Position numbers and translations under genes: made by a program. Below are positions 1,579-40,975 of a stretch of 60,553 nt of DNA, in pieces (within the stretch, counting starts at the first letter, position 1; the number at the start of each line of letters is the position of its first letter). The stretch lies in contig JAQYWG010000001.1 in NCBI GenBank assembly GCA_030145085.1, positions 1 to 60,553 on the forward strand, in the 5' to 3' direction. The notes beneath the pieces are model-generated. The model saw only the letters and a program-made list of their open reading frames with translations, did not search any database and was not told where the DNA came from. The DNA comes from Thermodesulfobacteriota bacterium (lineage in GTDB: Bacteria > Desulfobacterota > BSN033 > WVXP01 > G020346125).

Positions 1579-1594
1579 TGGCATTCATTTTGCT
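1579..1594 (+). promoter_or_regulatory. Sigma-54 (-24/-12) promoter TGGCAT-N5-TTGCT
   Basis: aaTTGGCATtcattTTGCTTa with GG and GC 12 nt apart. It sits 30 nt upstream of ATG 1624, and a GAGG ribosome-binding site lies between them. Confidence 0.65.
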
Positions 1595-1623
1595 TACACA
1601 TTCTAATCGCGAGGTTACTATTG

Positions 1624-2088: not shown

Positions 2089-2108
2089 AAGGATAAGGAG
2101 TCAGGATC

Positions 2109-2996: not shown

Positions 2997-3027
2997 GTTT
3001 GGCCTGACGGCAAATGGGAAGGAGAAA

Positions 3028-4182: not shown

Positions 4183-4187
4183 GGAAT

Positions 4188-5644: not shown

Positions 5645-5650
5645 TCTAGT

Positions 5651-6274: not shown

Positions 6275-6316
6275 GTGGTCCCTGAGAACACTATCTTCGG
6301 ATAGGATTGGGTTTTT

Positions 6317-7729: not shown

Positions 7730-7745
7730 ACCTGATTGTTAATCG

Positions 7746-8939: not shown

Positions 8940-8956
8940 CCTGATTAGGGGAGAAT

Positions 8957-10321
8957 ATGAAACCGGCCGTATTAGTCGTGGATGACGATGAGGTTATGCG
9001 ACAAACGCTCTCCGATGTCCTCAAGAAGAAGGGGTATGCGATCTCTACCGCGGAGACAGGCAGACAGACGATATCTTCTGTTAAGGAACATTTTTTTGAC
9101 TTGATTTTGTTAGATATCCGACTCCCCGATATGGATGGACTCGATGTTCTAAAGAGCATAAAAGAGATTGAAAGCGACCTTATGGTTATCGTAATGACCG
9201 CTTATTCCGATGTCCAGACAGCAGTCATGGCGATGAAGTCAGGGGCTTATGATTACATCGATAAGCCTTTTGAGCTGGAGGAGCTGAAAATCCTTATCCA
9301 AAAGGCCCTGGAGACGCAGAACCTAAAAAATGAAATCCGCCAGTTACGGCGACAGGGAAAGGAGAAACATGAGGGCATCGAAATTTTTGGTAATAGCCCT
9401 CTTATAAAGAATGTGATGGAGTTGATCGAGATGATCAGCCAAACCCCGAAGACGTCCGTTTTGATTCAAGGGGAGAGCGGCACGGGAAAGGAATTGGCCG
9501 CGAATGCCATTCATTACCGGAGTAAGAGAGTCAATAAACCGCTGATGAAGATCAATTGCAGCGCAATCCCGGAAAATTTGCTGGAGACCGAACTTTTCGG
9601 CTATGAAAAGGGGGCCTTCACCGATGCCAAGGGAACGAAGAAAGGCCTTTTTGAACTGGCCAATGGGGGAACGGTCTTCCTGGACGAAATCGCTGAGATG
9701 AAATCCTACCTCCAAACAAAGCTTCTAAGGATTCTGGAGAACCAAAGATTCATGAGGGTAGGGGGGGAAAGGGAAATCGTTGTCGATGTCCGAATTATAG
9801 CCGCCACCAACAAAGATTTATCAGCCTTGGTCAACGGGGGACAGTTTAGAAAGGACCTGTATTATCGCCTAAAGGTTATGGTTATTGAAATGCCGCCCCT
9901 GAGGGAGAGAGTGGAAGACATCCTGTCTTTGGGGAACCTCTTTATCGAGGAAAATAATAAGGAATTGGGAAAGAACGTAACGGGAATATCGGAGGCGGCA
10001 AGCGAATATTTGCTCAATTATCAGTGGCCTGGAAACGTAAGGGAATTGAAGAATATTATCGAGCGGGCTATGATCTTATCCAATGGCAAGGAAATACTAC
10101 CCGACCATTTCCCCATTGAGTTGAGGAAGGGGCAAATGGAGGGGCTCGAAGATCGGACTTCGGGTACCGAGGATCTCGCCCTGGAGACCGTGGAAAAAAA
10201 GCATATCATGGATGTTCTGATGATGATGGATGGGAATAAATCGAAGGCTGCGAGGATGCTGGGAATCTCTCGATCCACCTTAAGGGAGAAGCTGAAGAAA
10301 TATTCTATTGCTGCGGCTTAG
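8957..10321 (+). CDS. Sigma-54-dependent response regulator (NtrC/PilR family)
   Basis: REC (LILLDIRLPDMDGL). AAA+ Walker A GESGTGKE. GAFTGA-type loop GYEKGAFTDA. C-terminal Fis-type HTH (NKSKAARMLGISRSTLREKLKKY). Confidence 0.92.
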   Translation: MKPAVLVVDDDEVMRQTLSDVLKKKGYAISTAETGRQTISSVKEHFFDLILLDIRLPDMDGLDVLKSIKEIESDLMVIVMTAYSDVQTAVMAMKSGAYDYIDKPFELEELKILIQKALETQNLKNEIRQLRRQGKEKHEGIEIFGNSPLIKNVMELIEMISQTPKTSVLIQGESGTGKELAANAIHYRSKRVNKPLMKINCSAIPENLLETELFGYEKGAFTDAKGTKKGLFELANGGTVFLDEIAEMKSYLQTKLLRILENQRFMRVGGEREIVVDVRIIAATNKDLSALVNGGQFRKDLYYRLKVMVIEMPPLRERVEDILSLGNLFIEENNKELGKNVTGISEAASEYLLNYQWPGNVRELKNIIERAMILSNGKEILPDHFPIELRKGQMEGLEDRTSGTEDLALETVEKKHIMDVLMMMDGNKSKAARMLGISRSTLREKLKKYSIAAA

Positions 10322-13279: not shown

Positions 13280-15969
13280 AACATTCATTTTTTAAGAAAC
13301 CAATTCGATGGATTTGCCCTTTGGGTTTCATTTTCCTCATCTATGCCCTCGGTAGCTGTGCTCGGGGGCCCACAAAACCAATGACACCGGAGACAATGGA
13401 GGGAATGTCCATCAGGATTAAGGAGATCAGTTTCCAAGAGGAACCCAATTACACCCGTGTCATCATAGAGGGATCTGAGCCCCTCAAATATACCTTCTTT
13501 AAGCTCCTGACGGACCCCCTTAGAATCGCCATCGATGTTCCCAACGGTGAATTTGAGGATATCCCCGTTCCCATCGAGGTGAACAACGGCACATTGACCC
13601 AGATCAACATCGGCCAATTTGAGGGGAAGGGGAGGGTTGAGATCGGTTTAACCCAGACGGTCAACTATAATATCACCAAGGTGGAGAAGAAGCTCTTTGT
13701 GGATGTGGAACGAGTGGGAGTGGCCGAGGAGAAGATCCCCCCGGAGGCCGTAAAAATAAAGGCGAAGGCGGAAAAGATCACCCAAATCCTCGTGGATAAA
13801 GGGGAGAAGGTGATCCATGTTACCTTGGTCGGGGATGGAAAGATAGGGAATTACAATTCCTTCAAGCTGGGAGACCCCCCGCGCCTCGTGATCGATATCT
13901 GGAATGTGGAAAAGGAATATCCGAAGAACCTCGTCCAGGTCGACCACCCTCTCCTGAAGAGGGTTCGACTGGGAAAGCACCCCAAGAAGGCCCGTTTCGT
14001 CTTCGATTCGGCTCGCCCCCAGATGCCACCGTTTCAGATCCAAAGGGCCGAGAACCGATTGATTGTCTCCCTTGGTATAGCGGAGGAGGCCCCCCCCAAG
14101 GTCGAGAGATTGGGGACGTTAACAGGAATCGATTTCAAACAGATGGATCACACATCGAGGATCATCGTCTCTACCTCTGATGCGGCTACCTACGATGTCT
14201 TCAAAATATCGAAAAAGGCAGTGGCCCTGGATCTGAAAAAAATGAGGGTACCAAAAAGATTGAGGAGGAGAGTGGATACCAAGGCCTTTTACAGCGCCGT
14301 TGATTATATCAACCTCTACAATGTGAAGTCGGAGACTTCTAGGGATGTGAGGATCATCGTTCGCCTGAGGGAAGGGGTTGATTTTGAGGCAACCCAAGAG
14401 GGCAAACGAATCTACCTGGATTTTGAGAAGCCGGCCAAGCCCATTGGCCACGGTCGAGCTATCAAAAAAACCGAACCAGATGAATCCCAGGTGGCGAAGG
14501 CGGAGGTGATCGTAAGTGAAGAGGTAAAGCCGAAATCCCAAGAGGCTAAGGCCGAGGCCCCCGAAGCTACGGGGGAATCCCCCGAGAAAAATCAGGCTCT
14601 CGAAAGAGAAGAGGTTCCTCAGGAAGGCCCAAAGGCCGCTCAAGAGGCTCCTGCTTTCGCTGAAAAAAAGGCCGAAAAAGAGGAGGCCCCTGCAGAGCTC
14701 CTGGGGGAAAAGGAAAGCATCCTAGACGTGTTGGTGGCCCAGAAGCAGTATACTGGGAGAAAGTTATCCCTGGATTTCAAGGACGCCGATATCAACAATA
14801 TCCTGAGATTGATAGCAGAGGTGAGCGATCTCAATATCATCGCCGGTGAGGATGTCAAGGGCAAGCTGACCATACGTCTCGTTGACGTCCCGTGGGATCA
14901 AGCCTTGGATATCATTTTACAATCCAACGATTTGGGCAAGGTGAGGATCGGTAACGTAATCCGGGTGGCCCCCATTGACAAATTGAAGAAGGAAGAGGAA
15001 GATGTGCTAGCCGCCAGGAGGGCCAAAGAAAAACTGGAGGACTTGAGCACCGAACTTATCAACGTGAACTACGCCACGGCCAAGGATTTGCAAGAGCAGG
15101 TTAAGGAGATACTGACCGAGCGGGGAACCGTCGGCGTAGACGAGCGTACCAACGTGCTGGTCGTCAAGGATATCCAGTCCGCCATCAATGAGGCGAAGGA
15201 ATTGGTCGCATCCCTGGATACCAAAACCCCTCAGGTATTGATCGAGGCCAGGATCGTCGAAGCCAACGCCGATTTTACCAGGGAGCTCGGGGTGGTTTGG
15301 GGGGGAACAGCTACAAAAATACACGGAAACAGAGCGAGTCCTAAGGGGACATCCACCATCTCCGGAGGGCTTCTCGGAACCGATACCCTGATCAACCTTC
15401 CCGTGGGGAACCCCGCGGGAGCCATCAGTTTCGGGTGGTTATCGGATGTTGCGGGACTCAGAAATTTAGATATTACCCTCCATGCCTTGGAGGAGTCGGG
15501 CGGAGGGAAGGTCATATCAAGCCCGAGGATCGCTACCCTGGATAACACGGAGGCCTACGTTGAACGCGGGGATAGGATCCCCTACCTGAAGGTAACCGAA
15601 GAGGGCACGGTCACGACGGAGTTCATCGAGGCCAACCTGAAATTGACCGTAACCCCCCATGTAACCAACGATGGAAACATCAAGCTGAAGATCAAGGCCT
15701 CCAATGATGAGCCGGATTTCGATCGGACAGTTCAGGGCGTTCCCACCATTAAGAAAAAGGAAGCCATAACTGAAGTCCTGGTCAGGGACAACGATATCGT
15801 TGTCATCGCGGGGGTCTACGACATCGATGAGGGGAAACAACAGACGGGAATTCCCTTCTTCTCCAGAATTCCCCTTATTGGGTGGTTCTTTAAGTATGAA
15901 AAGAAGACCGTTATAAAAGAGGATCTCCTGATCTTTATCTCCCCCAAGATCTTGAAGGATTGGGTGTAG
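13276..15969 (+). CDS. pilQ: Type IV pilus secretin PilQ with three N-terminal AMIN domains
   Basis: 897 aa. Lipoprotein-like signal (LIYALGSC). Three AMIN-like repeats of about 100 aa. E/K/A/P-rich linker. N0/N1 (LSLDFKDADINNILRLIAEVSDLNII). Secretin core (VLIEARIVEA...GIPFFSRIPLIGWFF). Confidence 0.93.
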   Translation: MKHSFFKKPIRWICPLGFIFLIYALGSCARGPTKPMTPETMEGMSIRIKEISFQEEPNYTRVIIEGSEPLKYTFFKLLTDPLRIAIDVPNGEFEDIPVPIEVNNGTLTQINIGQFEGKGRVEIGLTQTVNYNITKVEKKLFVDVERVGVAEEKIPPEAVKIKAKAEKITQILVDKGEKVIHVTLVGDGKIGNYNSFKLGDPPRLVIDIWNVEKEYPKNLVQVDHPLLKRVRLGKHPKKARFVFDSARPQMPPFQIQRAENRLIVSLGIAEEAPPKVERLGTLTGIDFKQMDHTSRIIVSTSDAATYDVFKISKKAVALDLKKMRVPKRLRRRVDTKAFYSAVDYINLYNVKSETSRDVRIIVRLREGVDFEATQEGKRIYLDFEKPAKPIGHGRAIKKTEPDESQVAKAEVIVSEEVKPKSQEAKAEAPEATGESPEKNQALEREEVPQEGPKAAQEAPAFAEKKAEKEEAPAELLGEKESILDVLVAQKQYTGRKLSLDFKDADINNILRLIAEVSDLNIIAGEDVKGKLTIRLVDVPWDQALDIILQSNDLGKVRIGNVIRVAPIDKLKKEEEDVLAARRAKEKLEDLSTELINVNYATAKDLQEQVKEILTERGTVGVDERTNVLVVKDIQSAINEAKELVASLDTKTPQVLIEARIVEANADFTRELGVVWGGTATKIHGNRASPKGTSTISGGLLGTDTLINLPVGNPAGAISFGWLSDVAGLRNLDITLHALEESGGGKVISSPRIATLDNTEAYVERGDRIPYLKVTEEGTVTTEFIEANLKLTVTPHVTNDGNIKLKIKASNDEPDFDRTVQGVPTIKKKEAITEVLVRDNDIVVIAGVYDIDEGKQQTGIPFFSRIPLIGWFFKYEKKTVIKEDLLIFISPKILKDWV

Positions 15970-15984
15970 GCACCTCATAGGGAT

Positions 15985-16002
15985 TTTCCGTTTCAACGGA
16001 AA
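15985..16002 (+). terminator. Short hairpin after pilQ (weak terminator candidate, no U-tract)
   Basis: TTTCCGTT-tc-AACGGAAA lies 16 nt after the pilQ stop. No T-run follows it. Confidence 0.3.
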
Positions 16003-16334
16003 CAATCGCGGCAAAGGGATGGAGGATCTACCCTGACAAATCCTCGTAGTCTCCCTTGTGCGTATTATCCTGGAAAACGGGATAGATCCCAAAATGCGAT
16101 AGCCTTCATCTTTCAAAAAATTTTTCCGTAATCATTCCCTACCTCTTCTGGATATGGTTGATTCCCACCCGGTCGACAATTTCCCAATGAACGCCTGCTG
16201 ACACAATTACAACTTGAGACGTTCCAGCAGGGGCAAAATCCATAAATCCCTATATAATCAATAGATTACAAAAACATTTACCATCAAGGCCGGGAAGCTC
16301 CAGCCACGGCATCATGGCAGATACGTGGGCAATT

Positions 16335-16343
16335 TGCTATAAT
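16335..16343 (+). promoter_or_regulatory. Extended -10 sigma-70-type element TGCTATAAT upstream of aor
   Basis: TGcTATAAT lies about 100 nt upstream of ATG 16441. There is no convincing -35. Confidence 0.35.
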
Positions 16344-16440
16344 TTTTAATCGTGTGAACATCGATGATCGCGATGGAGGGTTTGAAGAACTCGCCCTGCA
16401 ATGATGGCCCGATTAACATGAAGAGAGAAATGAATGGCCT

Positions 16441-18177
16441 ATGGAAGGTTTCTTTAGAAGGCTTCTCCGAATTGATCTGAGCAACCAATCCTGGGCATGG
16501 GAAACGGTCCCGGGGAATCTCATAGAGGATTACCTGGGGGGGAAAGGAATGGGAACTTTTCTCCTTACTCAGGAAACCCCTCCAGGGATTGACTCGAGCG
16601 ACCCGCAGAACCCCATCATCTTCTCCAACGGATGCTTTGCTGACCTCCCCATTTACGGCTCCAGCCGATATGGGATCTTTACCAAATCGGCCCAGACGAG
16701 AGGATACCTGGAATGTTATGGGGGTGGGCACACAGCGATTCTCCTTTCTCGAACGGGGAATGATGCTATCATCATAAAAGGGAAATCCGTAGATCCCGTC
16801 TTCCTTGAAATCTCCCATAAGGGGGTTTTTTTTCGAGATGCATCTCCCATCTGGGGGCTCCCCACGGATCAAAGTGTGGAAATGATGCTTGGGGTAGTGG
16901 TAGAACCGCAGGCTTCCGCCCTCGTTATCGGCCCTGCGGGAGAAGCGGGGGTGAAATTTGCCATGGTGATCAACGAAGGAGGACGCTCCTTCGGGCGGGG
17001 GGGTCTCGGGGCCATTTGGGGTTCAAAGAGGCTGAAAGGGGTGGTCTTCCATGGAACGGAGAACCGCAGGCCCGCGGATCTTTCGAGGTTGAAGGTCTTT
17101 TACAAGAAGATGCAAAAGGAGGGGAAGGGGAGGGCACTAACCCGCATGTTCCGCACCTACGGTTCTCCCATGATGGTGGGGATCATGAACACCATGAAGG
17201 CATTTCCCACCCGCTATTGGGAAGAGGGGGCCGTTCAGGGATGGGAGCATCTCACAGCGGAACACCTCAAGAAAACCTGCCAGGTGAGGTCTATTTCCTG
17301 CCCCCATTGCTTTCTGGCCTGCGGAAAGCGAACGAAAGTAAAGAAAGGTCCCTACAAGGGACTTACGATATCGGGCCCTAACTATCAGACTATTGCGGCT
17401 TTCGGGGGCCTTTGCCTCATTAGTTCCCTTGAGGAAATCCTCTATCTGAATGATCTGTGTAATCGACTTGGGCTGGATACGGTGAGCGCTGGAAATGTAA
17501 TAGCCTTCGCCATGAAAGCCTCACAGGACGGAAGATTGGATCTCAACCTTCCCTTCGGGGATGCGGCACGTACTGAGGAAATACTCCAGAGGATAGCCCA
17601 TCGTGATAGTCTGGGCGGAATCCTGGCAGAGGGAGTGAGAGATGCTGCCCGCACCCTTGGGCTGGAGGATCTTGCCATCCATGTAAAAGGTTTGGAGCCT
17701 CCCGGGTTTGACCCCCGTTCCTTGAAAGGAATGGGCCTGGCATATGCTACTTCGCAAAGGGGAGCTACCCATCTTCAGAGTCTCTTCTATCTCGACGAGA
17801 TCAAAAGGGAATACAAGGCGGAGGATATCCGGGAATTGGTGCGGGCCTTGGTAGAAACAGAAGACCGTATGACCCTTTTTGATATGTTGCTCCTCTGTAA
17901 ATTCTATCGGAATTATCTCGGATGGGACGATATTATCTATCTCATCGAGGCGGTGACTGGAAGACGGTTCCGTGAGGAGGAACTCCGTGAGCGGGCTTCA
18001 AAGATCCTGAGCCTATCCATGGCCTTTAACAGACAGGAAGGAATCTCCATTGAGGAGGATACGCTACCGGTGAAGTTCTTAAGAAAGGCCGGCAAAAATG
18101 GCATCTGCCTGCCGCGTGAGGAACTGGAGATCATGGTGGCGGAATATCATCGCCTGCGGGGATGGAGAGGAGAATGA
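16441..18177 (+). CDS. aor: Aldehyde:ferredoxin oxidoreductase family (tungstopterin) enzyme
   Basis: 578 aa. N-terminus RLLRIDLSNQSW...EDYLGGKGMG. Cys cluster SCPHCFLACGK. The C-terminal EDTLPxxFL motif is typical of the AOR family. Confidence 0.9.
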   Translation: MEGFFRRLLRIDLSNQSWAWETVPGNLIEDYLGGKGMGTFLLTQETPPGIDSSDPQNPIIFSNGCFADLPIYGSSRYGIFTKSAQTRGYLECYGGGHTAILLSRTGNDAIIIKGKSVDPVFLEISHKGVFFRDASPIWGLPTDQSVEMMLGVVVEPQASALVIGPAGEAGVKFAMVINEGGRSFGRGGLGAIWGSKRLKGVVFHGTENRRPADLSRLKVFYKKMQKEGKGRALTRMFRTYGSPMMVGIMNTMKAFPTRYWEEGAVQGWEHLTAEHLKKTCQVRSISCPHCFLACGKRTKVKKGPYKGLTISGPNYQTIAAFGGLCLISSLEEILYLNDLCNRLGLDTVSAGNVIAFAMKASQDGRLDLNLPFGDAARTEEILQRIAHRDSLGGILAEGVRDAARTLGLEDLAIHVKGLEPPGFDPRSLKGMGLAYATSQRGATHLQSLFYLDEIKREYKAEDIRELVRALVETEDRMTLFDMLLLCKFYRNYLGWDDIIYLIEAVTGRRFREEELRERASKILSLSMAFNRQEGISIEEDTLPVKFLRKAGKNGICLPREELEIMVAEYHRLRGWRGE

Positions 18178-31246: not shown

Positions 31247-32989
31247 ATGGCCCATCCCAAAAGCTACACGTTGAGTTACAAATCTCTCGGCGCGCTGTTG
31301 GTCGATAACAAGGTGTTCACCCAGGAACAGCTTGACAAGGCCCTCGATCGACAGAGAAAGAAGGGGGGGCTTTTAGGGGATATCATAATCGAAATGGGCC
31401 TCGCCTCTGAGGGTCAGGTCCTCGGGGCCCTTGCGCAACAGCTCAGCATCCCACACCTAACCCCCGACGAAGTTGTCTTTATCGATCCCGAGGTCATTAG
31501 GCTCGTTCCCGAGCGCATTGCGCGACAGTCCATGGCAATACCCGTTTCCATACGGGACAATACCTTGACCGTGGCCATGGTGAACCCCTTCGATATCATC
31601 GCCATCGATGACCTCCGGACTATTACCAATTATAAGATCAATACGGCCATTATATCCAAATCGGGATTGGAAGCCCTCATCAATCGATTCTATGGGGTCA
31701 GTGAGCGGGAATCTAGCCTGGAGGATGTCTTAAAGGATGTATCGGAGACCCACCTTGAGCTCAAAAAGGAATTCGACGATGATCGCGAGGTTAACCTGGA
31801 GAGGCTCCGGGAGCAGGTGGAAGAGGCCCCCATTGTCAAATTGGTGGATTACATCATATCGAACGCCATCAACGAGCGGGCGAGCGATATCCACATCGAG
31901 CCCCAGGAGACACGGTTGAGCATTCGCTACCGGATTGACGGGGTACTCCACGATATCATTTCTCCGGCAAAGGCACTCCAGATGGCCATCGGTTCTCGAA
32001 TCAAGATTATGTCCAACATGGATATCGCCGAAAGACGCCTTCCTCAGGATGGCCGTTTTACCATAAAGCAGGGGTTTCGGGAGGTTGACCTGAGGGTATC
32101 CACGTTGCCCACCATCTTCGGCGAAAAGGTGGTAATGAGGCTCCTGGAGAAGGGGTCCCTTTCCCTGGACATAGACAGCCTGGGATTCGGCGACGGCCAA
32201 TTGGAAATTTTTCGGAGCTACATATCAAAACCCCACGGGATGGTTCTCCTCACGGGACCAACGGGAAGCGGAAAGACGACCACCCTCTATTCGGCCCTGA
32301 CGGAGATTAAATCCTCTCAGACCAATATCGTTACGGTGGAGGATCCCGTGGAGTATCAGATCAAGGGGATCTACCAGGTTCAGGCCAATCCCAAAATCGG
32401 CCTCACCTTTGCCAACGGTTTACGGTACATTCTTCGCCAGGATCCGGATATCATCATGGTGGGCGAGATCCGGGACTTGGAGACGGCCGAGATGGCCATT
32501 CGGTCCGCCCTTACCGGGCATCTCGTATTCAGCACCCTGCATACCAATGACGCCGTGGGAACCATTGTCCGACTGATCAACATGGGTGTGGAGCCATATC
32601 TCGTCTGCTCTTCTCTGAGTTTGGCCGTCGCCCAGCGCCTGGTGCGAAAGATCTGCCCTCACTGCAAGGAGTCATACAAGCCAACCAAGGAGGTGCTGCG
32701 GAGCCTCGGAGTCGATGAAAAGCCTCAAAAGAACTTTCTCTTTCACCAGGGCAAGGGGTGCCATAGATGCAAGGGCACGGGCTATTACGGTAGGACGGCT
32801 ATCTGCGAAATTTTGGAGATGAAGGCTCCAGTTCGAAACGCCATCCTCAACGGGGCCGATATCGAGGGAATGAGGCAGGTGGCCCTTGAGCTGGGGATGA
32901 CCACCCTCAGGAAAGGCGGCTTGCAGAGGGTGCGAGATGGGATTACAACTCCGGAAGAGGTTTTCAGGGCGACCATCGAGGAAGATTAA
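31247..32989 (+). CDS. pilB: Type IV pilus extension ATPase (PilB/MshE/GspE family) with MshEN-like N-terminus
   Basis: T2SSE_N region. Walker A GPTGSGKTTT. Asp box VEDPVEY. Walker B IMVGEIRD. His box. Tetracysteine CPHC...CHRC. Confidence 0.94.
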   Translation: MAHPKSYTLSYKSLGALLVDNKVFTQEQLDKALDRQRKKGGLLGDIIIEMGLASEGQVLGALAQQLSIPHLTPDEVVFIDPEVIRLVPERIARQSMAIPVSIRDNTLTVAMVNPFDIIAIDDLRTITNYKINTAIISKSGLEALINRFYGVSERESSLEDVLKDVSETHLELKKEFDDDREVNLERLREQVEEAPIVKLVDYIISNAINERASDIHIEPQETRLSIRYRIDGVLHDIISPAKALQMAIGSRIKIMSNMDIAERRLPQDGRFTIKQGFREVDLRVSTLPTIFGEKVVMRLLEKGSLSLDIDSLGFGDGQLEIFRSYISKPHGMVLLTGPTGSGKTTTLYSALTEIKSSQTNIVTVEDPVEYQIKGIYQVQANPKIGLTFANGLRYILRQDPDIIMVGEIRDLETAEMAIRSALTGHLVFSTLHTNDAVGTIVRLINMGVEPYLVCSSLSLAVAQRLVRKICPHCKESYKPTKEVLRSLGVDEKPQKNFLFHQGKGCHRCKGTGYYGRTAICEILEMKAPVRNAILNGADIEGMRQVALELGMTTLRKGGLQRVRDGITTPEEVFRATIEED

Positions 32990-32998
32990 GGGACCCAG

Positions 32999-34234
32999 AT
33001 GCCACTGTATTCTTATACGGCCAAGAGGGGAGACGGAAGAAACCTAAGGGGTGACCTGGAGGCAATCAGCGAGCTGGAGGTAATAGAGACATTACACCGG
33101 CGGAACCTCACCGTCCTCGACATCGCGGAGAAGAAAAGTGCCCGGGAAAAGGACCTCGTGGGCCGGTTCTCAATGAGTGATCCCCTCTTCGGAGGGGGGG
33201 TTAAACACGATGAGATTTTCCTCTTTGCGAGTCAAATGTCGGCCATGGTTGAAGCCGGGCTGCCCTTGCTTCGATGTCTGACGAGCTTCGGCAATGAGGT
33301 TGAGAACCCGCGGTTCAAGAGGGTGATGGATTCCGTGAGCATTGATGTCGAGGAGGGAAGTACCTTTTTCGATGCCCTGTCCAAGCATCCTAAGGTATTC
33401 AGCAAACTCTTCGTCAACATGGTCAAGGCCGGCGAAGTCAGCGGACGGTTGGATCAAACCCTTGCTCAACTGGCCAGTTATCTGGAGAGTACCGCAAACC
33501 TTCGGAGGAAGGTGAAGGCAGCCGTCACATACCCCCTTTTTCTCATCGGATTTACCATCTTCGCCATCATCCTCCTGGTAGCCAAGGTGGTCCCTGTATT
33601 CCAAAAGATTTATACAGGGGCGAGGGTACGCCTTCCGGTCCCCACTCGGATATTGATAGGCAGCAGTGTCGCTATTCGTGACTACTATTGGCTTATCCTG
33701 TTGATCGCCGCAGGAATCGGGATTCTCATTTATGCCGGGCTTCAAACCGAAAGGGGTCGGCTTTTCTGGGATAAGCATAAGCTCCGGATTCCCATCTTAG
33801 GACCATTGATGCGGAAATATTCCCTGACCAAATTTACCAGGACACTGGGGGTTTTGCTCAATAGTGGAGTTCCCATCTTGGGTTCCCTTGATCTGGTTGC
33901 GGAGACCGCTGGCAATAGGATGTTGGAAAGGGCCATTCTTGGAAGCTCAGCGTCCATTGAGCAGGGCAGTGGGTTTGCCGAAGCCCTCGCTGAAAGGAGA
34001 GATGTATTTCCGGAGATGGTGGTTCAGATGTCCGCCACGGGTGAGGAATCGGGGACGTTGGACAACATGGTGAGCAAAGTGGCAAATTTCTACGAGAAAC
34101 AGATAGAGGCGAGCATCACCACCGTGACGTCTCTCATCGAGCCTATCCTCGTCATCTTCATCGGAACGGTGGTGGGAGGAATTTTGCTCTCCATCTTCCT
34201 CCCCATATTCAAGATGGGGCGGGCAATTCACTGA
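32999..34234 (+). CDS. pilC: Type IV pilus platform protein PilC/GspF
   Basis: 411 aa with two T2SSF repeats (MVEAGLPLLRCL, LLNSGVPILGSL) and three TM segments. Confidence 0.94.
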   Translation: MPLYSYTAKRGDGRNLRGDLEAISELEVIETLHRRNLTVLDIAEKKSAREKDLVGRFSMSDPLFGGGVKHDEIFLFASQMSAMVEAGLPLLRCLTSFGNEVENPRFKRVMDSVSIDVEEGSTFFDALSKHPKVFSKLFVNMVKAGEVSGRLDQTLAQLASYLESTANLRRKVKAAVTYPLFLIGFTIFAIILLVAKVVPVFQKIYTGARVRLPVPTRILIGSSVAIRDYYWLILLIAAGIGILIYAGLQTERGRLFWDKHKLRIPILGPLMRKYSLTKFTRTLGVLLNSGVPILGSLDLVAETAGNRMLERAILGSSASIEQGSGFAEALAERRDVFPEMVVQMSATGEESGTLDNMVSKVANFYEKQIEASITTVTSLIEPILVIFIGTVVGGILLSIFLPIFKMGRAIH

Positions 34235-35729
34235 TGTGGGGACTTCCCGTCCCCGTAATGGATAGTTCGATTCTGAAGATCACCCCTTTCCTTTTCCCCT
34301 CCATCTCGTTCATTACCCTAATACGGCCTCCATGAGCGGTGACGATCTGTTGGGCAATGCTCAAACCGAGTCCGATGCCTCCGGGCTTGGTGGTGAAGAA
34401 AGGATTGAATACCCGTTCGCTGTCCTCGACGGATATGGGGTCTCCCGTATTGAAGACGTCGATCATAACGCGCTGCTGCGTCGACGGACCGGACCGATGA
34501 GGACCGGTAGTATCTTGCCCCCTATCCAGGGACAGCTGCACGATATCCGTAGTAACCTGAACGGTTCCTCCTTCAGGGGTGGCCTCCAGTGCGTTGTTGA
34601 TGATATTGAGGATCGCCTGGGTCATCTTATCGCCCTCCACGGCGATCTCGGGGAGGTCCCCCCGGTAATGTTCCTTGACGATGATCTTTTTTTCGGGAAA
34701 CCCGGTTTTCGCCAGGGAGACCGTCTCCCGAACGATTTCCTCTATGTCCCGTTGTTCAAACGCGAAGGTTGAGGGTTGGGCAAAAGTCAGAAGCTCTTCC
34801 ACGACTTTATTCAACCTGTCGATCTCCTTGATGATTACCTCGACGTATTCCGCCCTTCCACCCCTCTCGATGATATCCTCTTGCAGGAGTTGGGCCAACC
34901 CCCTCAGAGACCCCAGAGGGCTCCGAATCTCATGGGCCAGCCCGGCCACAAGGCTACCCAACGAAGCGAGCCGATTGATTCTCTCGATTTCCCGTTGAAT
35001 CTCTTGAATCTCCCCCAGGTCACGGAAACTGGCCACCACCTCCACCAACTTTCCCTCGGCACCGCCCAATAAGGCCGTCCTGATTCTCATGGCCAACTTC
35101 TTTCCCTTATCGGTCATGACCGTCACATCTTCCACTGAGCTGGGCATTTCCTTCTCAATCCCAAGAAGTATCATATCCGTGAGCGCTTTGTTGGATTTAT
35201 GGATGGGGAAGAGATCCGTGAAGTGTCTTCCCACTACGTCCCGGGTATCATGATCAAATATGGTCTCAGCAGCAGGGTTGAAGGTCGCAATAATGCCATC
35301 GGAGTTGATGGTTACCACCGCACCGACAGAAGTCTCCAGGAGGTATCGATTCAATGAAGAGACCATTTGATTGTAGGCCTGAACCAGTTGGTTGATCTCC
35401 TCCTGGGGGAAGAGTTCCAAGCTTTGGCTGAGATCTCCTTGGGCGACGGATTGGACCCCTCTGGTTAGCTGTTTGATCGGTCTCTTGATGGCATAGGTGA
35501 GCACTACACCCGAGAGGCACGCCACGAATCCTCCGATCAAAACGTAAATTCGCATTTGTTGCGTTGCCGCCTTGACTTTGGCGATGGTTGGGGGGTTGTT
35601 GGGGGATCGGAGGAGCTCTCGTTCATTGATCTCAATGGCGAGGAATCCCGTAAAGAGGACCAGGAGTGTAGTGAACACCTGGATGGCGATGAAAATACGG
35701 ATTCCGACCAACCTCGACCGTATCTTCAT
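34209..35729 (-). CDS. TM-HAMP-PAS sensor histidine kinase (paralog A)
   Basis: Two TM segments with a short loop. HAMP (PIKQLTRGVQSVAQGDLSQSLE). PAS. H-box AGLAHEIRSPLGSL. HATPase (GIGLGLSIAQQIV). The 3' end overlaps the pilC 3' end by 26 nt. Confidence 0.88.
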   Translation of the reverse strand: MKIRSRLVGIRIFIAIQVFTTLLVLFTGFLAIEINERELLRSPNNPPTIAKVKAATQQMRIYVLIGGFVACLSGVVLTYAIKRPIKQLTRGVQSVAQGDLSQSLELFPQEEINQLVQAYNQMVSSLNRYLLETSVGAVVTINSDGIIATFNPAAETIFDHDTRDVVGRHFTDLFPIHKSNKALTDMILLGIEKEMPSSVEDVTVMTDKGKKLAMRIRTALLGGAEGKLVEVVASFRDLGEIQEIQREIERINRLASLGSLVAGLAHEIRSPLGSLRGLAQLLQEDIIERGGRAEYVEVIIKEIDRLNKVVEELLTFAQPSTFAFEQRDIEEIVRETVSLAKTGFPEKKIIVKEHYRGDLPEIAVEGDKMTQAILNIINNALEATPEGGTVQVTTDIVQLSLDRGQDTTGPHRSGPSTQQRVMIDVFNTGDPISVEDSERVFNPFFTTKPGGIGLGLSIAQQIVTAHGGRIRVMNEMEGKRKGVIFRIELSITGTGSPHISELPAPS

Positions 35730-35736
35730 AGGCGGA

Positions 35737-37284
35737 TTAATCCCCTTGGTCTAAAAGGTATCGGACGAAGATATCGACCAACTCGGGATCGAATTGCTTC
35801 CCCTTCTGCTCCTTGAGGACGGCAATAACGTCATCCTTGGGAAGGGGCCCCCTGTAAGGTCGCTCGGTGGTCATGGCGTCATAGGTATCCGCTATGGCAA
35901 TGATCCGAGCCCCCAACTCGATCTCTTTCCCCCTCAATCCATCTGGGTATCCAGTACCATCGAACCTCTCATGATGGTGGCGAATGATGGGCTGGGCGGG
36001 CTCCAAAAAAGGGATCACTCGGATAATATTTTCGCCCTTTGCCGGGTGTTCCTTTATCTGTGTATATTCCTCATCGGTGAGATCTCGATCCTTGTGAATG
36101 ATGGCATCGGGGATTCCGATCTTCCCGATATCGTGCAACACACATGCGTATTCAATGGTAGAGGTGATTTCACTTAGCAGTCCCAGGTGTCTGGCCATTT
36201 CAACGGCATAGGTCTTCACCCTTTCGGAGTGCCCCCTTGTATACCGGTCCTTCTCCTCAACGGCCCTGGCAAGGGCTTTCATGGTCCGAAAATAACTCCT
36301 CTCTATCTCAATGCTCTTCAGTTGATTGTTGATGGCAACGGAAGCCGTATCAGCGATGAAATCCAAATTTTCCAAATCTTCCTCAACATAGGGTTGATCC
36401 CCAAAACGATTCGTTACGTTAATGATCCCCAATGAGAGGTTGGTAGCCTTGAGGGGAGCTTGCATGAGCGGAAAGCTCATAAAGGACCTATACTGGGAAT
36501 ACCGATCCGATTCCGCCTTCATGGAGCCGATGTCATCGACTCTGATGGCCTTCCCCGTTTCCAAAATCTTTCCCGCAATTGCCTCACCCCTCCTTATCCT
36601 CGTCTTTCTCACTATCTCTTCTTCCAATCCAATGGCACCCTTAATGCTGAGGTATTCACCTTTTTCGTCGAGCAGCATAATGGATACCCTCTTACTATAC
36701 ATGAAATCGGCCACGAAATTCACCACGGAATTGACTACGTCCTCGAGGTTATCCATTGAATTGAGCTGGTTGGCGAACTTGTAAATGGCGAAGATGGTCT
36801 TCGTCTGTTCCCGCACCTTCAGCTCTAAACTCCGCTGATACTCTTTGATTTGATCATTGAGCCTCTTCTTCTCAAGGGCCCTCTTAACGGTATTGATCAG
36901 GATTTCCCGTTCAATGGGCTTGGTGATATAATCATAGGCCCCCGCCTTAATGGATTCCTGGGCCGTATCCAGGGAGGGTGCACCTGTGACCATGATAATC
37001 GGGATATCCCTGCGCTGGTCTTGTAGCCTCTGGAGGAGTTCGAGACCGTCCATCTCCTCCATGCGGATGTCCGAAATGACCGTATCGAAGGAGTTCTCCT
37101 GAAAGAGCTGGAGGGCATCCTTGGCGTTATCGGCCGAGGTTACCTCATATCCCTCCTTTTCCAAACGCTTTTGGATGGATTTCCTGATCGTCAACTCATC
37201 ATCGACCACGAGGATCCTCGACCTGTTCAACCCTTGATCCTCATTCGTCATCTTCGATATCTCCTTCATATACGGGAAGATCAA
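35737..37284 (-). CDS. Response regulator REC-GAF-HD-GYP (predicted c-di-GMP phosphodiesterase)
   Basis: REC (VISDIRMEEMDGLE). GAF segment. HD-GYP signatures HDIGKIGIPD and HHERFDGTGYPDGL. Alternative starts at 37269 and 37251 reduce the overlap with the upstream kinase. Confidence 0.9.
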   Translation of the reverse strand: MIFPYMKEISKMTNEDQGLNRSRILVVDDELTIRKSIQKRLEKEGYEVTSADNAKDALQLFQENSFDTVISDIRMEEMDGLELLQRLQDQRRDIPIIMVTGAPSLDTAQESIKAGAYDYITKPIEREILINTVKRALEKKRLNDQIKEYQRSLELKVREQTKTIFAIYKFANQLNSMDNLEDVVNSVVNFVADFMYSKRVSIMLLDEKGEYLSIKGAIGLEEEIVRKTRIRRGEAIAGKILETGKAIRVDDIGSMKAESDRYSQYRSFMSFPLMQAPLKATNLSLGIINVTNRFGDQPYVEEDLENLDFIADTASVAINNQLKSIEIERSYFRTMKALARAVEEKDRYTRGHSERVKTYAVEMARHLGLLSEITSTIEYACVLHDIGKIGIPDAIIHKDRDLTDEEYTQIKEHPAKGENIIRVIPFLEPAQPIIRHHHERFDGTGYPDGLRGKEIELGARIIAIADTYDAMTTERPYRGPLPKDDVIAVLKEQKGKQFDPELVDIFVRYLLDQGD

Positions 37285-38731
37285 TGGTCACTTTGGTGTA
37301 TTCCCCTTCTTTGCTATCGAAACGAATAGCGCCCTTGTGTTCCTGGATGATATTAAAGCTGATGCTCAAGCCCAAACCGGTCCCCTGACCCTGTTCCTTT
37401 GAGGTGAAAAAGGGGTTGAAGATCTTGTCCATATCTTCCTCGGGTATGCCGATGCCCTTGTCATGAAATTCGACACGTACATATTTCCTACCGTTCTCCT
37501 CTACCTGATCGGTTCGGATAAGGAGGGTTTTATCTTCATGGGGACTGGGATATTTCTGATTCAAGGCGTGCCGCGCATTGCTGAGCAGGTTGATGAAGAC
37601 CTGTTCGATTTGATTGAAGCTTCCCCTGACGAAGGGCAGTGTCTCCTGGATCTCCTTGACGATTTTAATACGATCGAGGTGGATCTGATGTTCGGTAAGG
37701 TTGAGAGAGGAGGCGATGACCGAGGAAATGTCGAGGGTCGTGTAAGTCTTTGAATCCCTCTGTCTGGAGAAGTTGAGCAGATCCTGGACAATGGTCTTAA
37801 TCCGCTGGCTGTTCTCGATGATTTCCCGGATTTCCTCCTGTTGTTCCTCGTTATTCTCGGGGATCTCCTCTTGGAGAAACTCGGCGTTGCTGAGGATACC
37901 CGAAAGGGGATTGTTGATCTCGTGGGCCACGCCCGCGGCCAGTTCTCCCAGGGAGGCCATTTTATCTGCCTGAATCAGCTGCATCTCCATCTGTTTCTTC
38001 TCGGTCATATCCCTGACCACGCTCAGATATCCGATGATTTCCCCGGTTTCCTCGGTCAACGTGGTCATCACGCACCATCCGTCGATGGAATGCCCCTTGC
38101 TATTGGAATAGACGATCTCACCTTGCCAGCGTCCTTTTTTCATGGCGGATTCCTGCATGTGCTGGATGAGATCCGGCTTCATCTTGGGCGAGTGGAGCGT
38201 ACTCAGGCCCTTTCCCACGATATAGTCCTTGCCGTATCCGAACATCCGCTCAGAACTTTCGCTCCAGAGGGTAATCCGGCCCTCTCGGTCCGTGGTCATG
38301 ATGGCATCATCGGCGGCATAGAAGACCTTTCGAAGGTGTTCCTCCGACTTCTTCAGGGAGGAAAGCATCTGGTTATATGCCTGCACCAACTGCGAGAACT
38401 CAAACTGACTGGGCACGTCGATGGTCTTGGTGAAATCGCCCACAGCGGCCGATTGAACGCTTTCGATCAGCTTTTTGATAGGCTTGGTTATGGCCAAGGT
38501 GAGGGCGATGCCCGACAGACACGCAATAACGCCTCCGATCAACACCTTGACTCGGATGGTCTGGAGCGACTGCTTTACCTGCCAAATTGTGGGGGGCTTC
38601 TTTCGGCGCAAGAGGGCAATCCGGTTGGTCTCGATGGCCCAAAATCCGGTGCCGAGGACGATGAGGGTGGTGAAAACCTGGGTGAGGATAAATAATCTTA
38701 AACCTAAGCCGCCAAATCTCTTTTTTTCCAT
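37241..38731 (-). CDS. TM-HAMP-PAS sensor histidine kinase (paralog B)
   Basis: The N-terminal 100 aa align with the 34209-35729 kinase (QVFTTLxVLxTGFxAIE...LIGGxxACLSGxxLTxAIxxPIKxL). H-box AGVAHEINNPLSGI. HATPase GTGLGLSISFNII. Confidence 0.88.
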   Translation of the reverse strand: MEKKRFGGLGLRLFILTQVFTTLIVLGTGFWAIETNRIALLRRKKPPTIWQVKQSLQTIRVKVLIGGVIACLSGIALTLAITKPIKKLIESVQSAAVGDFTKTIDVPSQFEFSQLVQAYNQMLSSLKKSEEHLRKVFYAADDAIMTTDREGRITLWSESSERMFGYGKDYIVGKGLSTLHSPKMKPDLIQHMQESAMKKGRWQGEIVYSNSKGHSIDGWCVMTTLTEETGEIIGYLSVVRDMTEKKQMEMQLIQADKMASLGELAAGVAHEINNPLSGILSNAEFLQEEIPENNEEQQEEIREIIENSQRIKTIVQDLLNFSRQRDSKTYTTLDISSVIASSLNLTEHQIHLDRIKIVKEIQETLPFVRGSFNQIEQVFINLLSNARHALNQKYPSPHEDKTLLIRTDQVEENGRKYVRVEFHDKGIGIPEEDMDKIFNPFFTSKEQGQGTGLGLSISFNIIQEHKGAIRFDSKEGEYTKVTIDLPVYEGDIEDDE

Positions 38732-38808
38732 GATTTTTCTTTTCTCTTTAAATCAAATTGTAGGCTCAAAATGTCACCGTGTCAAGAAACAAGGAGCTAT
38801 TGATATTG

Positions 38809-38837
38809 TTGCAAATATTTTGCCAAAATGCTAGAAT
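38809..38837 (+). promoter_or_regulatory. Sigma-70-like promoter TTGCAA-N17-TAGAAT for the divergent activator gene
   Basis: The -35 lies at 38809-38814 and the -10 at 38832-38837, about 38 nt upstream of ATG 38875. It physically overlaps the minus-strand sigma-54 element. Confidence 0.4.
38810..38825 (-). promoter_or_regulatory. Sigma-54 promoter TGGCAA-N5-TTGCA for the kinase/HD-GYP/kinase operon
   Basis: The minus strand reads ttTTGGCAAaatatTTGCAacaa with correct GG-N10-GC spacing, about 80 nt upstream of ATG 38731. Confidence 0.55.
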
Positions 38838-38874: not shown

Positions 38875-40269
38875 ATGGCTCAAGAGAGGATATTGGTCGT
38901 AGAGGACGATCCCAGTATGAGCTTCTTTCTCTCCGAGGCAATGCAAAAGGAGGGATATCGGGTGGATGCCATCGCCTCCGGGGAGGAGGCCCTGGAGAAG
39001 ATCGGGCAAGATCGGTTCAATTTGGTGATTTTGGACCTGAAACTCCCCTCAATGGATGGGATGGAGGTTCTGGCAAACATTAAGGTGACCAATCCGGAGA
39101 TGGCGGTGATCATGGTTACCGCACATGGCTCAAAGGATATCGCCATCGAGGCAATACGGAAAGGTGCCTACGATTACTTCACCAAGCCTTTGGATATCAA
39201 CGAGATGAGGGTAGTGGTTAAGCGGGCTCTGGAGAGGGAACACCTTCAGAATGAACTCAGACAACTGAGGGAGACGGTCGAAAAGAGGAGGGGGTTTTTC
39301 AATATTGTGGGAAACAGCAAGGAAATGAGGGAGGTCTTCGATATGGCGGAGACCGTCTTCGATAATGACATCACCGTCCTGATTACCGGGGAGAGCGGAG
39401 CGGGAAAGGAATTGATCGCGGAGGCCATTCATTACAATAGCCCACGGAGGGCAAAACCCTTTGTCAAACTAAACTGCGTAGCCATTCCGGAGACCCTTCT
39501 GGAAAGCGAGCTCTTCGGCTACGAGAAGGGGGCCTTCACCGGCGCAACCAGGCAGAAGCTGGGCAAATTTGAACTGGCCAACCAAGGGACCCTGTTGCTG
39601 GACGAAATCGGGGACATGAGCCTGGCAACCCAGGCCAAGCTATTGAGGGTGCTGCAGGAGAGGGAAGTGGAAAGGGTAGGGGGGGTTAAGCCCATTAAGG
39701 TCGATGTCCGGATTATCGCCTCCAGCAATCAAGATCTGGCTCAACTGGTCATGGAAAAACGCTTCCGGGAAGACCTCTATTTCCGGCTCAACGTTCTTCC
39801 CATCCACATTCCTCCCCTGAGGGAGCGTGTGGAAGATATTCCCCTTTTGGTGGATCATTTCGTGAGCTTATCCAAGACAAGGTTTCACAAGGATATCGAG
39901 GGGTTTTCTGAAGATGCCATGGATTTCTTGATCACCTATTCCTGGCCTGGAAACGTGAGGGAGCTGGAAAATATCGTGCAGAGGGCTATTATTTTGGCCA
40001 AGGAACCGGTCATCCAGGAATGGGACCTGCCCCCGGAGATACGCGGGCAGACGAAAAAATCTCACTTCGACGTGGAGAAGCTTGAAACGGATATCCCATT
40101 AAACGAAAAGGTGGAGATGATCATAGCCGAGGTCGAAAAAAAGCTCATTATTCAGGCATTGGATAAGGTTGGTTGGAAAAGGGAAGAGGCGGCCTCTCTC
40201 CTTGGGACAAGCCTCAAGACCCTCTATAACAAGATGAAGAAATACGGGCTTTTTGATCAATCCTCCTGA
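38875..40269 (+). CDS. Sigma-54-dependent response regulator, PilR-like by position upstream of the pilin gene
   Basis: MAQERILVVEDD start (the ORF-track extension from 38779 lacks homology-like content). REC (LVILDLKLPSMDGM). GESGAGKE. GAFTGA loop ELFGYEKGAFTGA. C-terminal HTH. Confidence 0.92.
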   Translation: MAQERILVVEDDPSMSFFLSEAMQKEGYRVDAIASGEEALEKIGQDRFNLVILDLKLPSMDGMEVLANIKVTNPEMAVIMVTAHGSKDIAIEAIRKGAYDYFTKPLDINEMRVVVKRALEREHLQNELRQLRETVEKRRGFFNIVGNSKEMREVFDMAETVFDNDITVLITGESGAGKELIAEAIHYNSPRRAKPFVKLNCVAIPETLLESELFGYEKGAFTGATRQKLGKFELANQGTLLLDEIGDMSLATQAKLLRVLQEREVERVGGVKPIKVDVRIIASSNQDLAQLVMEKRFREDLYFRLNVLPIHIPPLRERVEDIPLLVDHFVSLSKTRFHKDIEGFSEDAMDFLITYSWPGNVRELENIVQRAIILAKEPVIQEWDLPPEIRGQTKKSHFDVEKLETDIPLNEKVEMIIAEVEKKLIIQALDKVGWKREEAASLLGTSLKTLYNKMKKYGLFDQSS

Positions 40270-40300
40270 GCTGGACCATAGCAAGGAGGAAAGAGATTAC

Positions 40301-40325
40301 CGGTAATTGATTACCGATTTTTTTT
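40301..40325 (+). terminator. Rho-independent terminator after the activator gene
   Basis: CGGTAAT-tg-ATTACCG stem followed by ATTTTTTTT. Confidence 0.55.
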
Positions 40326-40441
40326 GATCATGGGCCTGTTTCCTGAGGGTAAAGAGGGATATCTCAATAGTTGATCAGAAATTAATTAATAATAACAAAT
40401 AGTTAGACACAATGTAATTAATTACCGGAAAGTTTGTAAAT

Positions 40442-40457
40442 TGGCATGATAGTTGCT
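40442..40457 (+). promoter_or_regulatory. Sigma-54 promoter TGGCAT-N5-TTGCT of the major pilin gene
   Basis: aaTTGGCATgatagTTGCTTa lies 57 nt upstream of ATG 40514. A strong Shine-Dalgarno (GGGAGGAAG) precedes the start. Confidence 0.72.
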
Positions 40458-40513: not shown

Positions 40514-40975
40514 ATGAAAAAGAGAAGGATCTTAAATCACAGAGGTTTTACCCTGGTGGAATTGATGGTGGTCATCATCATCGTCGGTATTCTGGCCGCT
40601 ATCGCTGTTCCCCTGTATACGGGATACGTCGAAAGGGCAAGGGTAACCGAGGCAACCAGTATCATGGGGGCCATCATTACCTCTCAAAAGGTGGAGATGC
40701 AGAGGACGACCAACTTTTACAATGCAGCGGATATCGCTACTTTTAGGAACAAAGGAATTGATATAAGCGATACGAAGTTTTTCACCTATGTAACATCCAT
40801 GGATGTGCCAGTAGCCGGGGGCTTTCAGGCCGTCGCCACCTCTACAGCCGATTTCGGTCAAGCAGGGGGGACCATAACTTACCAGTATAACCCAACAGTC
40901 TCTCCTCCTGGAAGCTGGGCGGCCGACGGGTCAATCATACTGGACGACATGTTGCCCACTGAGCCGAGCGGCTAA
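40514..40975 (+). CDS. pilA: Type IV pilin (type IVa-like, no cysteines)
   Basis: Leader [11 protein letters not shown], then the cleavage and methylation motif [37 protein letters not shown] with Glu at +5. Confidence 0.92.

Follow-up and report, generated by a model that had tools for sequence, protein, structure and literature searches.

The DNA considered here is a stretch of 60,553 nucleotides (nt) from a Thermodesulfobacteriota bacterium (NCBI GenBank assembly GCA_030145085.1, contig JAQYWG010000001.1, positions 1 to 60,553), and the whole of it is referred to as the window. Positions 34209-38731 are filled by three open reading frames in the same direction on the minus strand. They encode a histidine kinase (HK1), a response regulator of the REC-GAF-HD-GYP type, and a second histidine kinase (HK2), and they diverge from the gene of a sigma-54-dependent activator within a type IV pilus gene cluster. 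The reading preferred here, with a probability of roughly 0.55, is that the operon and the activator form a conserved two-kinase/two-regulator module of an accessory type IV pilus, in which the HD-GYP regulator most likely receives its signal from HK1, and the activator from HK2. The four genes are as follows.

37241..38731, minus strand: HK1, 496 amino acids (aa), with a transmembrane segment (TM), a loop and a second TM, followed by HAMP, PAS, HisKA and HATPase domains
35737..37251, minus strand: response regulator, REC-GAF-HD-GYP, 504 aa from the ATG at 37251
34209..35729, minus strand: HK2, a paralogue of HK1, 506 aa, with TM-loop-TM-HAMP, PAS, HisKA and HATPase_c
38875..40269, plus strand: NtrC-family sigma-54 activator, PilR-like by position, with REC, Sigma54_activat (with GAFTGA) and HTH_8

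HK1, the regulator, and HK2 are a single operon. The regulator start is placed at the ATG at 37251 because database copies of the product have 504 aa. This start has a GGAG upstream, and it gives an overlap of 11 nt with the HK1 stop. Only 7 nt separate the regulator stop from the HK2 start. The 3' end of HK2 overlaps that of the convergent pilC gene by 26 nt (34209-34234), so there is no room for a terminator between them. Overlaps of 20-33 nt at this position are also seen in three relatives (L021, L022, and L024).

The operon is part of a pilus gene cluster whose layout is conserved among related organisms. The cluster begins with genes for an MshM/ExeA-like ATPase, PilM, PilN, PilO, the secretin, PilB, and PilC, which meet the operon at HK2. 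Beyond HK1 and facing away from it are the genes for the activator, the pilin, minor pilins, and a PilX-like protein of 807 aa. The neighbours that bear most on the module are listed here.

31247..32989, plus strand: PilB/MshE-type assembly ATPase, T2SSE with an MshEN match and a tandem MshEN-like motif at the N-terminus
32999..34234, plus strand: PilC/GspF platform protein (T2SSF), convergent with HK2 and overlapping it
40514..40975, plus strand: major pilin, N_methyl, G/FTLVE

The host belongs to a small uncultured order of Thermodesulfobacteriota that is represented by 13 genomes in the collection. The whole layout recurs unchanged in seven other genomes, three from the genus and four from another family of the order; in that family the proteins are 60-63% (regulator), 55-57% (HK1), and 45-49% (HK2) identical to those of the window. 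A regulator orthologue is found in ten of the 13 genomes. The other three are 75-82% complete, and in two of these an orthologous locus is missing. In a distant clade found in metagenomes the genes for HK2, HK1, the regulator, and the activator follow one another in one direction, and genes for a pilin, minor pilins, a PilX-like protein of about 800 aa, and an AAA_22 protein come after them. The regulator of this clade is 47-50% identical and its HK1 about 50%. HK1 lies directly before the regulator in all three clades, and the position of HK2 changes. Since the four regulatory genes recur together, reordered, in the distant clade, the conserved unit is two kinases and two receivers tied to a pilus system, and the "sandwich" of the window is one gene order of it.

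The link to pili is restricted to the regulator subfamily with at least 47% identity, because relatives at 38-40% identity (L114 and L115), and those at or below 40% generally, are not pilus-linked. One relative at 47% identity, on a contig from a hydrothermal vent metagenome (L113), has a GAF-PAS kinase plus CheW on one side and a hybrid kinase on the other. A scan of genome contigs with the regulator alignment listed at least 80 loci, all with identities of 50% or less, and among those listed only one (L044) has two or more module genes nearby; its kinase and activator genes are some 4 kb away from that of the regulator. The L113 genes form a chemosensory-pilus operon, which runs CheA, CheB, CheR, REC, HDOD, GAF-PAS kinase, CheW, REC-GAF-HD-GYP, hybrid kinase, MshEN-type PilB with canonical KLG motifs, PilC, and pilin.

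Both kinases have the boxes of class I HisKA kinases. HAMP, PAS, HisKA, and HATPase_c were matched in both by a domain search. At the N-terminus of each, two hydrophobic segments spaced about 30 aa apart precede HAMP and PAS, unlike the six TM segments of the PilS type. HK1 is divided as follows.

HK1 parts, in residues: TM1, about 8-31; basic loop of 31 aa; TM2, 63-81; HAMP, 77-127; PAS, 131-244

The presumed periplasmic loop of HK1 (38542-38638, residues 32-62) contains eight Lys or Arg residues and one acidic residue, and the loops of its relatives are basic too. The positive-inside rule would not lead one to expect a basic loop there, and the short-loop topology of HK1 is uncertain for this reason. 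All of the catalytic boxes are present in HK1, with His270, NLLSNA (N), DKGIG (G1), and GTGLGL (G2). HK2 has His266 within a ZraS/NtrB-like H-box (HEIRSPLGSLRG), NIINNA (N), and GIGLGL (G2), and its G1 box is NTGDP. This box (residues about 430-436, in the region 34420-34440) has the form NxGxP instead of the canonical DxGxG in all HK2 orthologues. Thermotoga ThkA, an active kinase, shares NxGxP, so HK2 need not be inactive, and the idea that the Asp-to-Asn change makes HK2 a dead kinase was dropped. The catalytic domain of ThkA has been crystallized (3A0R/3A0T). Among proteins of solved structure the best relative of HK2 is ZraS (2e-35), and that of HK1 is LvrB (1.7e-39).

The sensor modules and the kinase cores of HK1 and HK2 appear to have discordant histories. 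The two proteins are 33% identical overall. In one genome of the genus, they are 59% identical in the TM1-loop-TM2 region and 53% in HAMP, and identity is 18% in PAS, 36% in the dimerization and histidine phosphotransfer (DHp) domain, and 24% in the catalytic and ATP-binding (CA) domain. A tree of the C-terminal part (PAS-DHp-CA) splits HK1 from HK2 with support of 100/100 and in 100% of bootstraps. In a tree of the N-terminal part (residues 1-127), the same split occurs in 0% of bootstraps, and the paralogues of the second family group together at 91/88. In the N-terminal module, paralogues of one genome are 59% identical in this genus; in the second family the figure is 49%. These values equal or exceed the identity of orthologues between groups (40% and 49%). 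The loop lengths of HK1 and HK2 are short and short in the genus, long and long in the other family, and long and short in the distant clade. TM1 of the shared module has an invariant Q-V/L-F. The pattern is suggestive of either an old exchange or co-evolution with a common partner. A TM/HAMP module that co-evolves in this way suggests one common membrane-level cue, or else contact between the two kinases, and from the unrelated PAS domains we infer two different cytoplasmic cues. The two kinases offer a case for studying how duplicated two-component pathways can share an input and keep separate outputs.

The regulator looks catalytically competent, judging from its conserved residues. Matches were found to Response_reg (REC), GAF, and HD_5/HD, with HD_5 at 8.6e-42. 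The GAF domain occupies residues 179-318 between REC and HD-GYP, and the two are thus not fused directly as in RpfG. The receiver has D17/D18, D61, T89, and K111, the residues expected of a REC domain. The HD-GYP domain has H373-D374, H402, H425-H427, G434-Y435-P436, and D455, and its motifs in an alignment to the Persephonella marina protein PmGH (4MCW) are LHDIGK, EHP, HHHERFDGTGYP, and IADTYDAM, which together supply the metal ligands and the GYP signature. Residues 169-509 align to PmGH at E=2e-49 with HD, H, HH, GYP, and D kept. The REC residues (DD, D61, T89, and K111) and the HD-GYP residues are invariant across 12 orthologues, down to 47% identity. The NCBIfam model for NosR-type regulators scores 253 bits on the regulator, and its cut-off is 400.

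These results agree with much of what an inspection of the window by itself had proposed (the original prediction). It had described two paralogous TM-HAMP-PAS kinases around a REC-GAF-HD-GYP gene, as the open reading frame coordinates and domain matches confirm. It had also noted an alignable N-terminal sensor with a loop of about 30 aa and diverged PAS segments, and the region-wise identities (59% in TM1-loop-TM2 and 18% in PAS) are of just this kind. The HD-GYP motifs that it saw in the middle gene are present, namely HDIGK and HHHERFDGTGYP. Finally, the operon does diverge from an activator, which is an NtrC-type sigma-54 activator upstream of the pilin gene.

The activator has the features of the PilR/NtrC family. 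It combines REC, an AAA+ domain with GAFTGA, and a Fis-type helix-turn-helix, and it is found beside a pilin gene that has a -24/-12 promoter. Comparison with relatives places its start at the ATG at 38875. No equivalog model reached its cut-off on the activator (AtoC, 491 vs 714). Three elements lie between the activator and the pilin gene.

40297..40316, plus strand: TTACCGGTAA-N4-TTACCG, a candidate binding site for the activator; the pilin -24 element follows about 130 nt downstream
40422-40427, plus strand: a further, promoter-proximal TTACCG (the third), upstream of the pilin sigma-54 promoter
40442..40457, plus strand: sigma-54 promoter of the major pilin gene, TGGCATGATAGTTGCT

Ahead of the pilin gene, the upstream site reads TTAC-NN-GTAA...TTACCG in 8/8 loci of two families; in the distant clade its form is TTAC-N3/7-GTAA...TTACAT. 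It is likely, from this conservation, that it is the binding site of the activator. The activator would then switch on the pilin gene at its sigma-54 promoter via the conserved TTAC..GTAA sites.

The gap between HK1 and the activator gene is 143 bp long and contains conserved promoter elements of two kinds.

38757..38785, minus strand: sigma-70-type promoter TTGACA-N17-TACAAT, an 11/12 match, between the sigma-54 element and the HK1 ATG
38810..38825, minus strand: sigma-54-type -24/-12 element TGGCAAAATATTTGCA, facing HK1, an exact match to TGGCA-N6-TTGCA
38809..38837, plus strand: sigma-70-like TTGCAA-N17-TAGAAT, a 9/12 match and candidate promoter of the activator gene, overlapping the sigma-54 element

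Exact TGGCA-N6-TTGCW occurs four times in the window, with 0.15 occurrences expected, and three of the four are upstream of genes in the correct orientation. The genome has one copy of rpoN. In nine of nine orthologous loci from two families, TGGCA-N6-TTGCAA is kept in the same orientation and TTGACA-N17/18-TAnnAT is kept 25-45 nt before the HK1 start, so that the two elements stand as conserved islands amid diverged DNA. The sigma-70 promoter adjoining HK1 is likely to be the basal promoter of the operon, at which transcription of the kinase genes would begin. The sigma-54 element upstream is probably a second, conditional promoter, and it overlaps the activator's own sigma-70-like promoter. 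An Rfam scan of the window gave no match at gathering score.

The operon had been called sigma-54-driven, and this description holds in part. A -24/-12 element does precede the operon, exact in sequence (TGGCA-N6-TTGCA) and conserved at 9/9 loci, and rpoN is present. However, a sigma-70 promoter lies next to HK1 in all nine loci, the -24/-12 element tracks the activator gene and not HK1, and the four-gene operon of the distant clade has a sigma-70-type promoter (TTGACA-N18-TAnnAT) with no sigma-54 element found ahead of it. For these reasons the operon is not simply sigma-54-driven. In addition, the pilin-type site (TTACCG/CGGTAA, as TTAC..GTAA) has no conserved occurrence in the kinase/activator gap, so nothing points to the activator serving the kinase operon.

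A different explanation of the TGGCA-N6-TTGCAA island is that it is not a promoter of the kinase operon at all and belongs to the control region of the activator gene, where it would supply the -35 and spacer of TTGCAA-N17-TAGnnT or act as an operator. The distances speak for it. Within each group the island keeps its spacing from the activator ATG, at 48-50 nt for the genus and 91-153 nt for the other family. Its distance to HK1, by contrast, is anywhere between 78 and 458 nt, owing to repeats that several genomes have acquired in this interval. Also, the opposite strand of the island reads TTGCAA-N17-TAGnnT, the CTA (TAG of that -10) located 6 nt outside TGGCA is kept in both families, and the island is missing where the activator is co-transcribed with the kinases. 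On the other hand, TGGCA falls within the spacer of the opposite-strand promoter, where conservation would not be expected, yet it is invariant in 9/9 loci, and the -24/-12 consensus is matched exactly and in one orientation only. This explanation is possible but doubtful, and a conditional sigma-54 promoter behind a basal sigma-70 promoter is preferred. The inserts themselves are repeat-like and measure 160-380 bp. They separate the sigma-54 island from the sigma-70 promoter in L022 (G003), L023 (G005), L028 (G001), and L027 (G008); the window and G006 have none.

The pilus motor is a candidate for the other end of the signalling pathway. PilB was compared with the MshEN motif, which is [RK]LGxx(LVI)2xxG(LVI)2x4(LVI)x3(LVI)xxQ in tandem with a spacer of 5 aa. 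The N-terminus of PilB contains a tandem MshEN-like motif of 24 residues with a 5-residue spacer, and the spacing and most positions are conserved in eight orthologues. PilB is thus a candidate reader of the second-messenger level. It would not be the only one. GEMM-I riboswitches were matched above the gathering score 13 times in the 3.1-Mb genome (for example C5:274-391 and C101:2160-2276), which also has 16 PilZ matches, about four solid GGDEF domains, and at least five HD-GYP proteins. Because GEMM-I riboswitches and PilZ domains are so numerous, a change in a cyclic dinucleotide would have many readers besides PilB. Geobacter has a similar profile of GEMM-I, GGDEF, PilZ, and HD-GYP. A profile so rich in GEMM-I raises the question of riboswitches of the cyclic GMP-AMP (cGAMP) type.

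The wiring of the module is probably two parallel kinase-regulator pairs, with cross-talk possible; this seems likelier than convergence. HK1 would phosphorylate the HD-GYP regulator, and HK2 would phosphorylate the sigma-54 activator. These pairs are favoured because HK1 abuts the regulator, the DHp helices of the two kinases differ, and HK2 is NtrB/ZraS-like. In HK1, the DHp helix after the phosphorylated His (HEINNPLSGILSNAEFL) is near-invariant among orthologues. The corresponding helix of HK2 is HEIR/KxPLGSLxGLxQ, which is also conserved among orthologues and is unlike that of HK1 at the helix-1 positions after the His. The closest DHp domains to that of HK2 in its own genome are those of a third kinase of the window (HK3, 7746-8939) and of a multi-TM PilS-like kinase on contig C333. 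Both adjoin NtrC-type regulators, and the REC domain of the activator is closest to those of these regulators. The pair on contig C333 occupies 14523-17657, and its NtrC-type regulator is the closest paralogue of the activator (REC 47% identical).

The phosphorylated regulator would hydrolyse cyclic di-GMP (c-di-GMP), or possibly 3'3'-cGAMP. The resulting change in cyclic dinucleotide would alter the activity of the MshEN-type PilB, many PilZ proteins, and the GEMM-I riboswitches. Transcription of the pilin gene and control of the pilus motor would thus be coupled. The upstream sigma-54 element would serve the kinase operon as a conditional second promoter.

Several observations weigh against this picture. 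The pairing is drawn from gene order and class-level similarity, and the closest paralogue of HK1 (on contig C199) also adjoins an NtrC-type regulator. A mirror-tree comparison on six neighbour pairs of the genome gave r = -0.01 vs -0.26 and did not rank the true pairs at the top; the method had no power and was not used as evidence of pairing. A site at which the activator might bind to serve the sigma-54 element was not found, and in the genus this element is only 49 nt away from the activator ATG. In the regulator, RYTRGH aligns with PETQNH of PmGH, so that the Glu, which we take to be E185 and a ligand of the third iron, is replaced by Tyr. This makes the metal site and the product (pGpG vs GMP) uncertain. 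The second-best relative of solved structure is the 3'3'-cGAMP phosphodiesterase 5Z7C (1.3e-39), and since this next-best match is a cGAMP-specific HD-GYP protein the substrate is not settled. Both PilB motifs are without the leading Arg/Lys and have S/L instead, and G10 of motif 1 is K/R. With regard to the sensor modules, HK1 monophyly was put to an approximately unbiased test with residues 1-127. The outcome, p = 0.06, is suggestive only, so that orthology is not formally rejected. The 5' DNA of HK1 and HK2 contains no recent gene-conversion tract, with 52-70% identity and a longest shared word of 11 nt. The N-terminal similarity is therefore old or kept at the protein level.

A branched or antagonistic wiring is unlikely. 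In such a scheme both kinases would act on both receivers, for instance one chiefly as kinase and the other chiefly as phosphatase, or the two would form mixed complexes through their similar TM-HAMP modules, with HK2 modulating HK1 as RetS does GacS. The N-terminal modules do co-vary between paralogues within lineages, both receivers are NtrC-like REC domains with a GAYDY motif that are about 37% identical, and the non-canonical G1 box occurs in every HK2 orthologue. But the same box in ThkA removes the need for an inactive HK2, and the DHp domains of HK1 and HK2, at only 31-36% identity, argue against DHp heterodimers.

The scheme of the original prediction, in which both kinases act on the HD-GYP regulator, the operon needs sigma-54 and the activator, and a feed-forward loop is formed with the pilin promoter, is improbable: the regulator does sit tightly between two kinases with different PAS domains (the 11-nt overlap and 7-nt gap), and a conserved -24/-12 element faces HK1 in a genome with rpoN, but the scheme leaves the activator, a second receiver and constant member of the module, without a kinase of its own, and it does not fit the unlike DHp recognition helices, the conserved sigma-70 promoter beside HK1, or the lack of a sigma-54 element in the distant clade. 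Two inputs converging on one phosphodiesterase is a possible arrangement and not the best reading, given two conserved receivers, differing DHp helices, and a sensor module that is the shared part. The feed-forward loop is not borne out, and the pilin-type upstream site, present before the pilin gene in all three clades, is never found in the kinase/activator gap.

With parallel pairs as the preferred wiring, the shared sensor module could have a more specific role, which we regard as a long shot. TM1-loop-TM2-HAMP may be a two-helix intramembrane sensor of the cluster's pilins, taking inventory as PilS does though differently built, or a surface for kinase-kinase contact, so that one cue would set both pilin transcription (via HK2 and the activator) and the second messenger that drives PilB (via HK1 and the HD-GYP regulator). 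If true, a single cue would explain why the module changes in step within each lineage and the PAS domains and kinase cores stay orthologous.

Every domain of the module is a textbook signalling part, so it is not a new mechanism. The parts are all of known kinds, and in combining them the module represents a lineage-specific variant of known regulation by two-component systems, of pili, and by c-di-GMP. It joins control of pilin transcription of the PilS/PilR type and a two-component-controlled HD-GYP phosphodiesterase in one pilus assembly cluster.

The HD-GYP branch resembles RpfC-RpfG of Xanthomonas, in which a two-component kinase controls an HD-GYP phosphodiesterase joined to a receiver, and pilus-dependent motility is among the outputs. 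Here, in contrast, a GAF domain lies between REC and HD-GYP, and the kinases are not hybrid sensors of the diffusible signal factor (DSF). PmGH is also a GAF-HD-GYP protein with HD, H, HH, GYP, and D conserved, but it has no receiver, and the regulator has Tyr where PETQNH of PmGH has Glu. For PilB the likeness is to MshE of Vibrio cholerae, whose MSHA pili are under c-di-GMP control through the MshEN domain; PilB has the tandem MshEN-like motif, and an MshM/ExeA-like AAA_22 gene stands at the start of the cluster. In both PilB motifs, however, the leading Arg/Lys is missing or displaced. As for promoters, the Escherichia coli glnA-ntrBC operon has the tandem promoters glnAp1 and glnAp2, a basal sigma-70 and a conditional sigma-54 promoter. 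The kinase operon likewise contains two-component genes, here with a likely sigma-70 and a probable sigma-54 promoter, but its sigma-54 element is the more distal of the two and varies in its distance from the sigma-70 promoter, and an activator site was not found.

The pilin branch resembles PilS-PilR of Pseudomonas aeruginosa (PMC6058289) in having an NtrC-type regulator beside a pilin gene with a sigma-54 promoter and, in HK2, a membrane kinase of the NtrB/ZraS DHp class in the locus. It differs in several ways. PilS has six TM segments, which contact pilin, and no HAMP, whereas the kinases here have two hydrophobic segments, HAMP, and PAS. There are two kinases, they are divergent from the activator, and the locus includes an HD-GYP regulator as well. 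Elsewhere in the genome, contig C333 encodes a separate multi-TM kinase of the PilS-like kind together with an NtrC-type regulator.

The architecture of the regulator belongs to a listed class, REC-PAS/GAF-HD-GYP or "RpfX" (for example DVU2933), in which the middle domain is expected to gate the signal from REC to HD-GYP (Galperin and Chou, bioRxiv 10.1101/2021.11.05.467447). That 2021 survey preprint lists no experimentally studied REC-GAF-HD-GYP regulator (bioRxiv 10.1101/2021.11.05.467447). None of the members that it describes is linked to a pilus cluster or lies between two paralogous kinases, unlike the regulator here. The regulator thus offers a defined set of kinases and a plausible target, the MshEN-type PilB.

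Further regulatory genes are associated with these pilus clusters. In the window, pilMNOPQ is preceded by a second regulatory block (1579-10321), which follows a further exact sigma-54 element at 1579. It encodes a Cache-HAMP protein, REC-DUF4388 and DUF4388 proteins, Roadblock/MglB-like and MglA-like GTPase proteins, a CheW-domain protein, a soluble PAS kinase, and an NtrC-type regulator. In one relative (L024, genome G010), an additional GAF-HD-GYP-like gene (16140-17198) comes right after the PilX-like gene of the pilus cluster.

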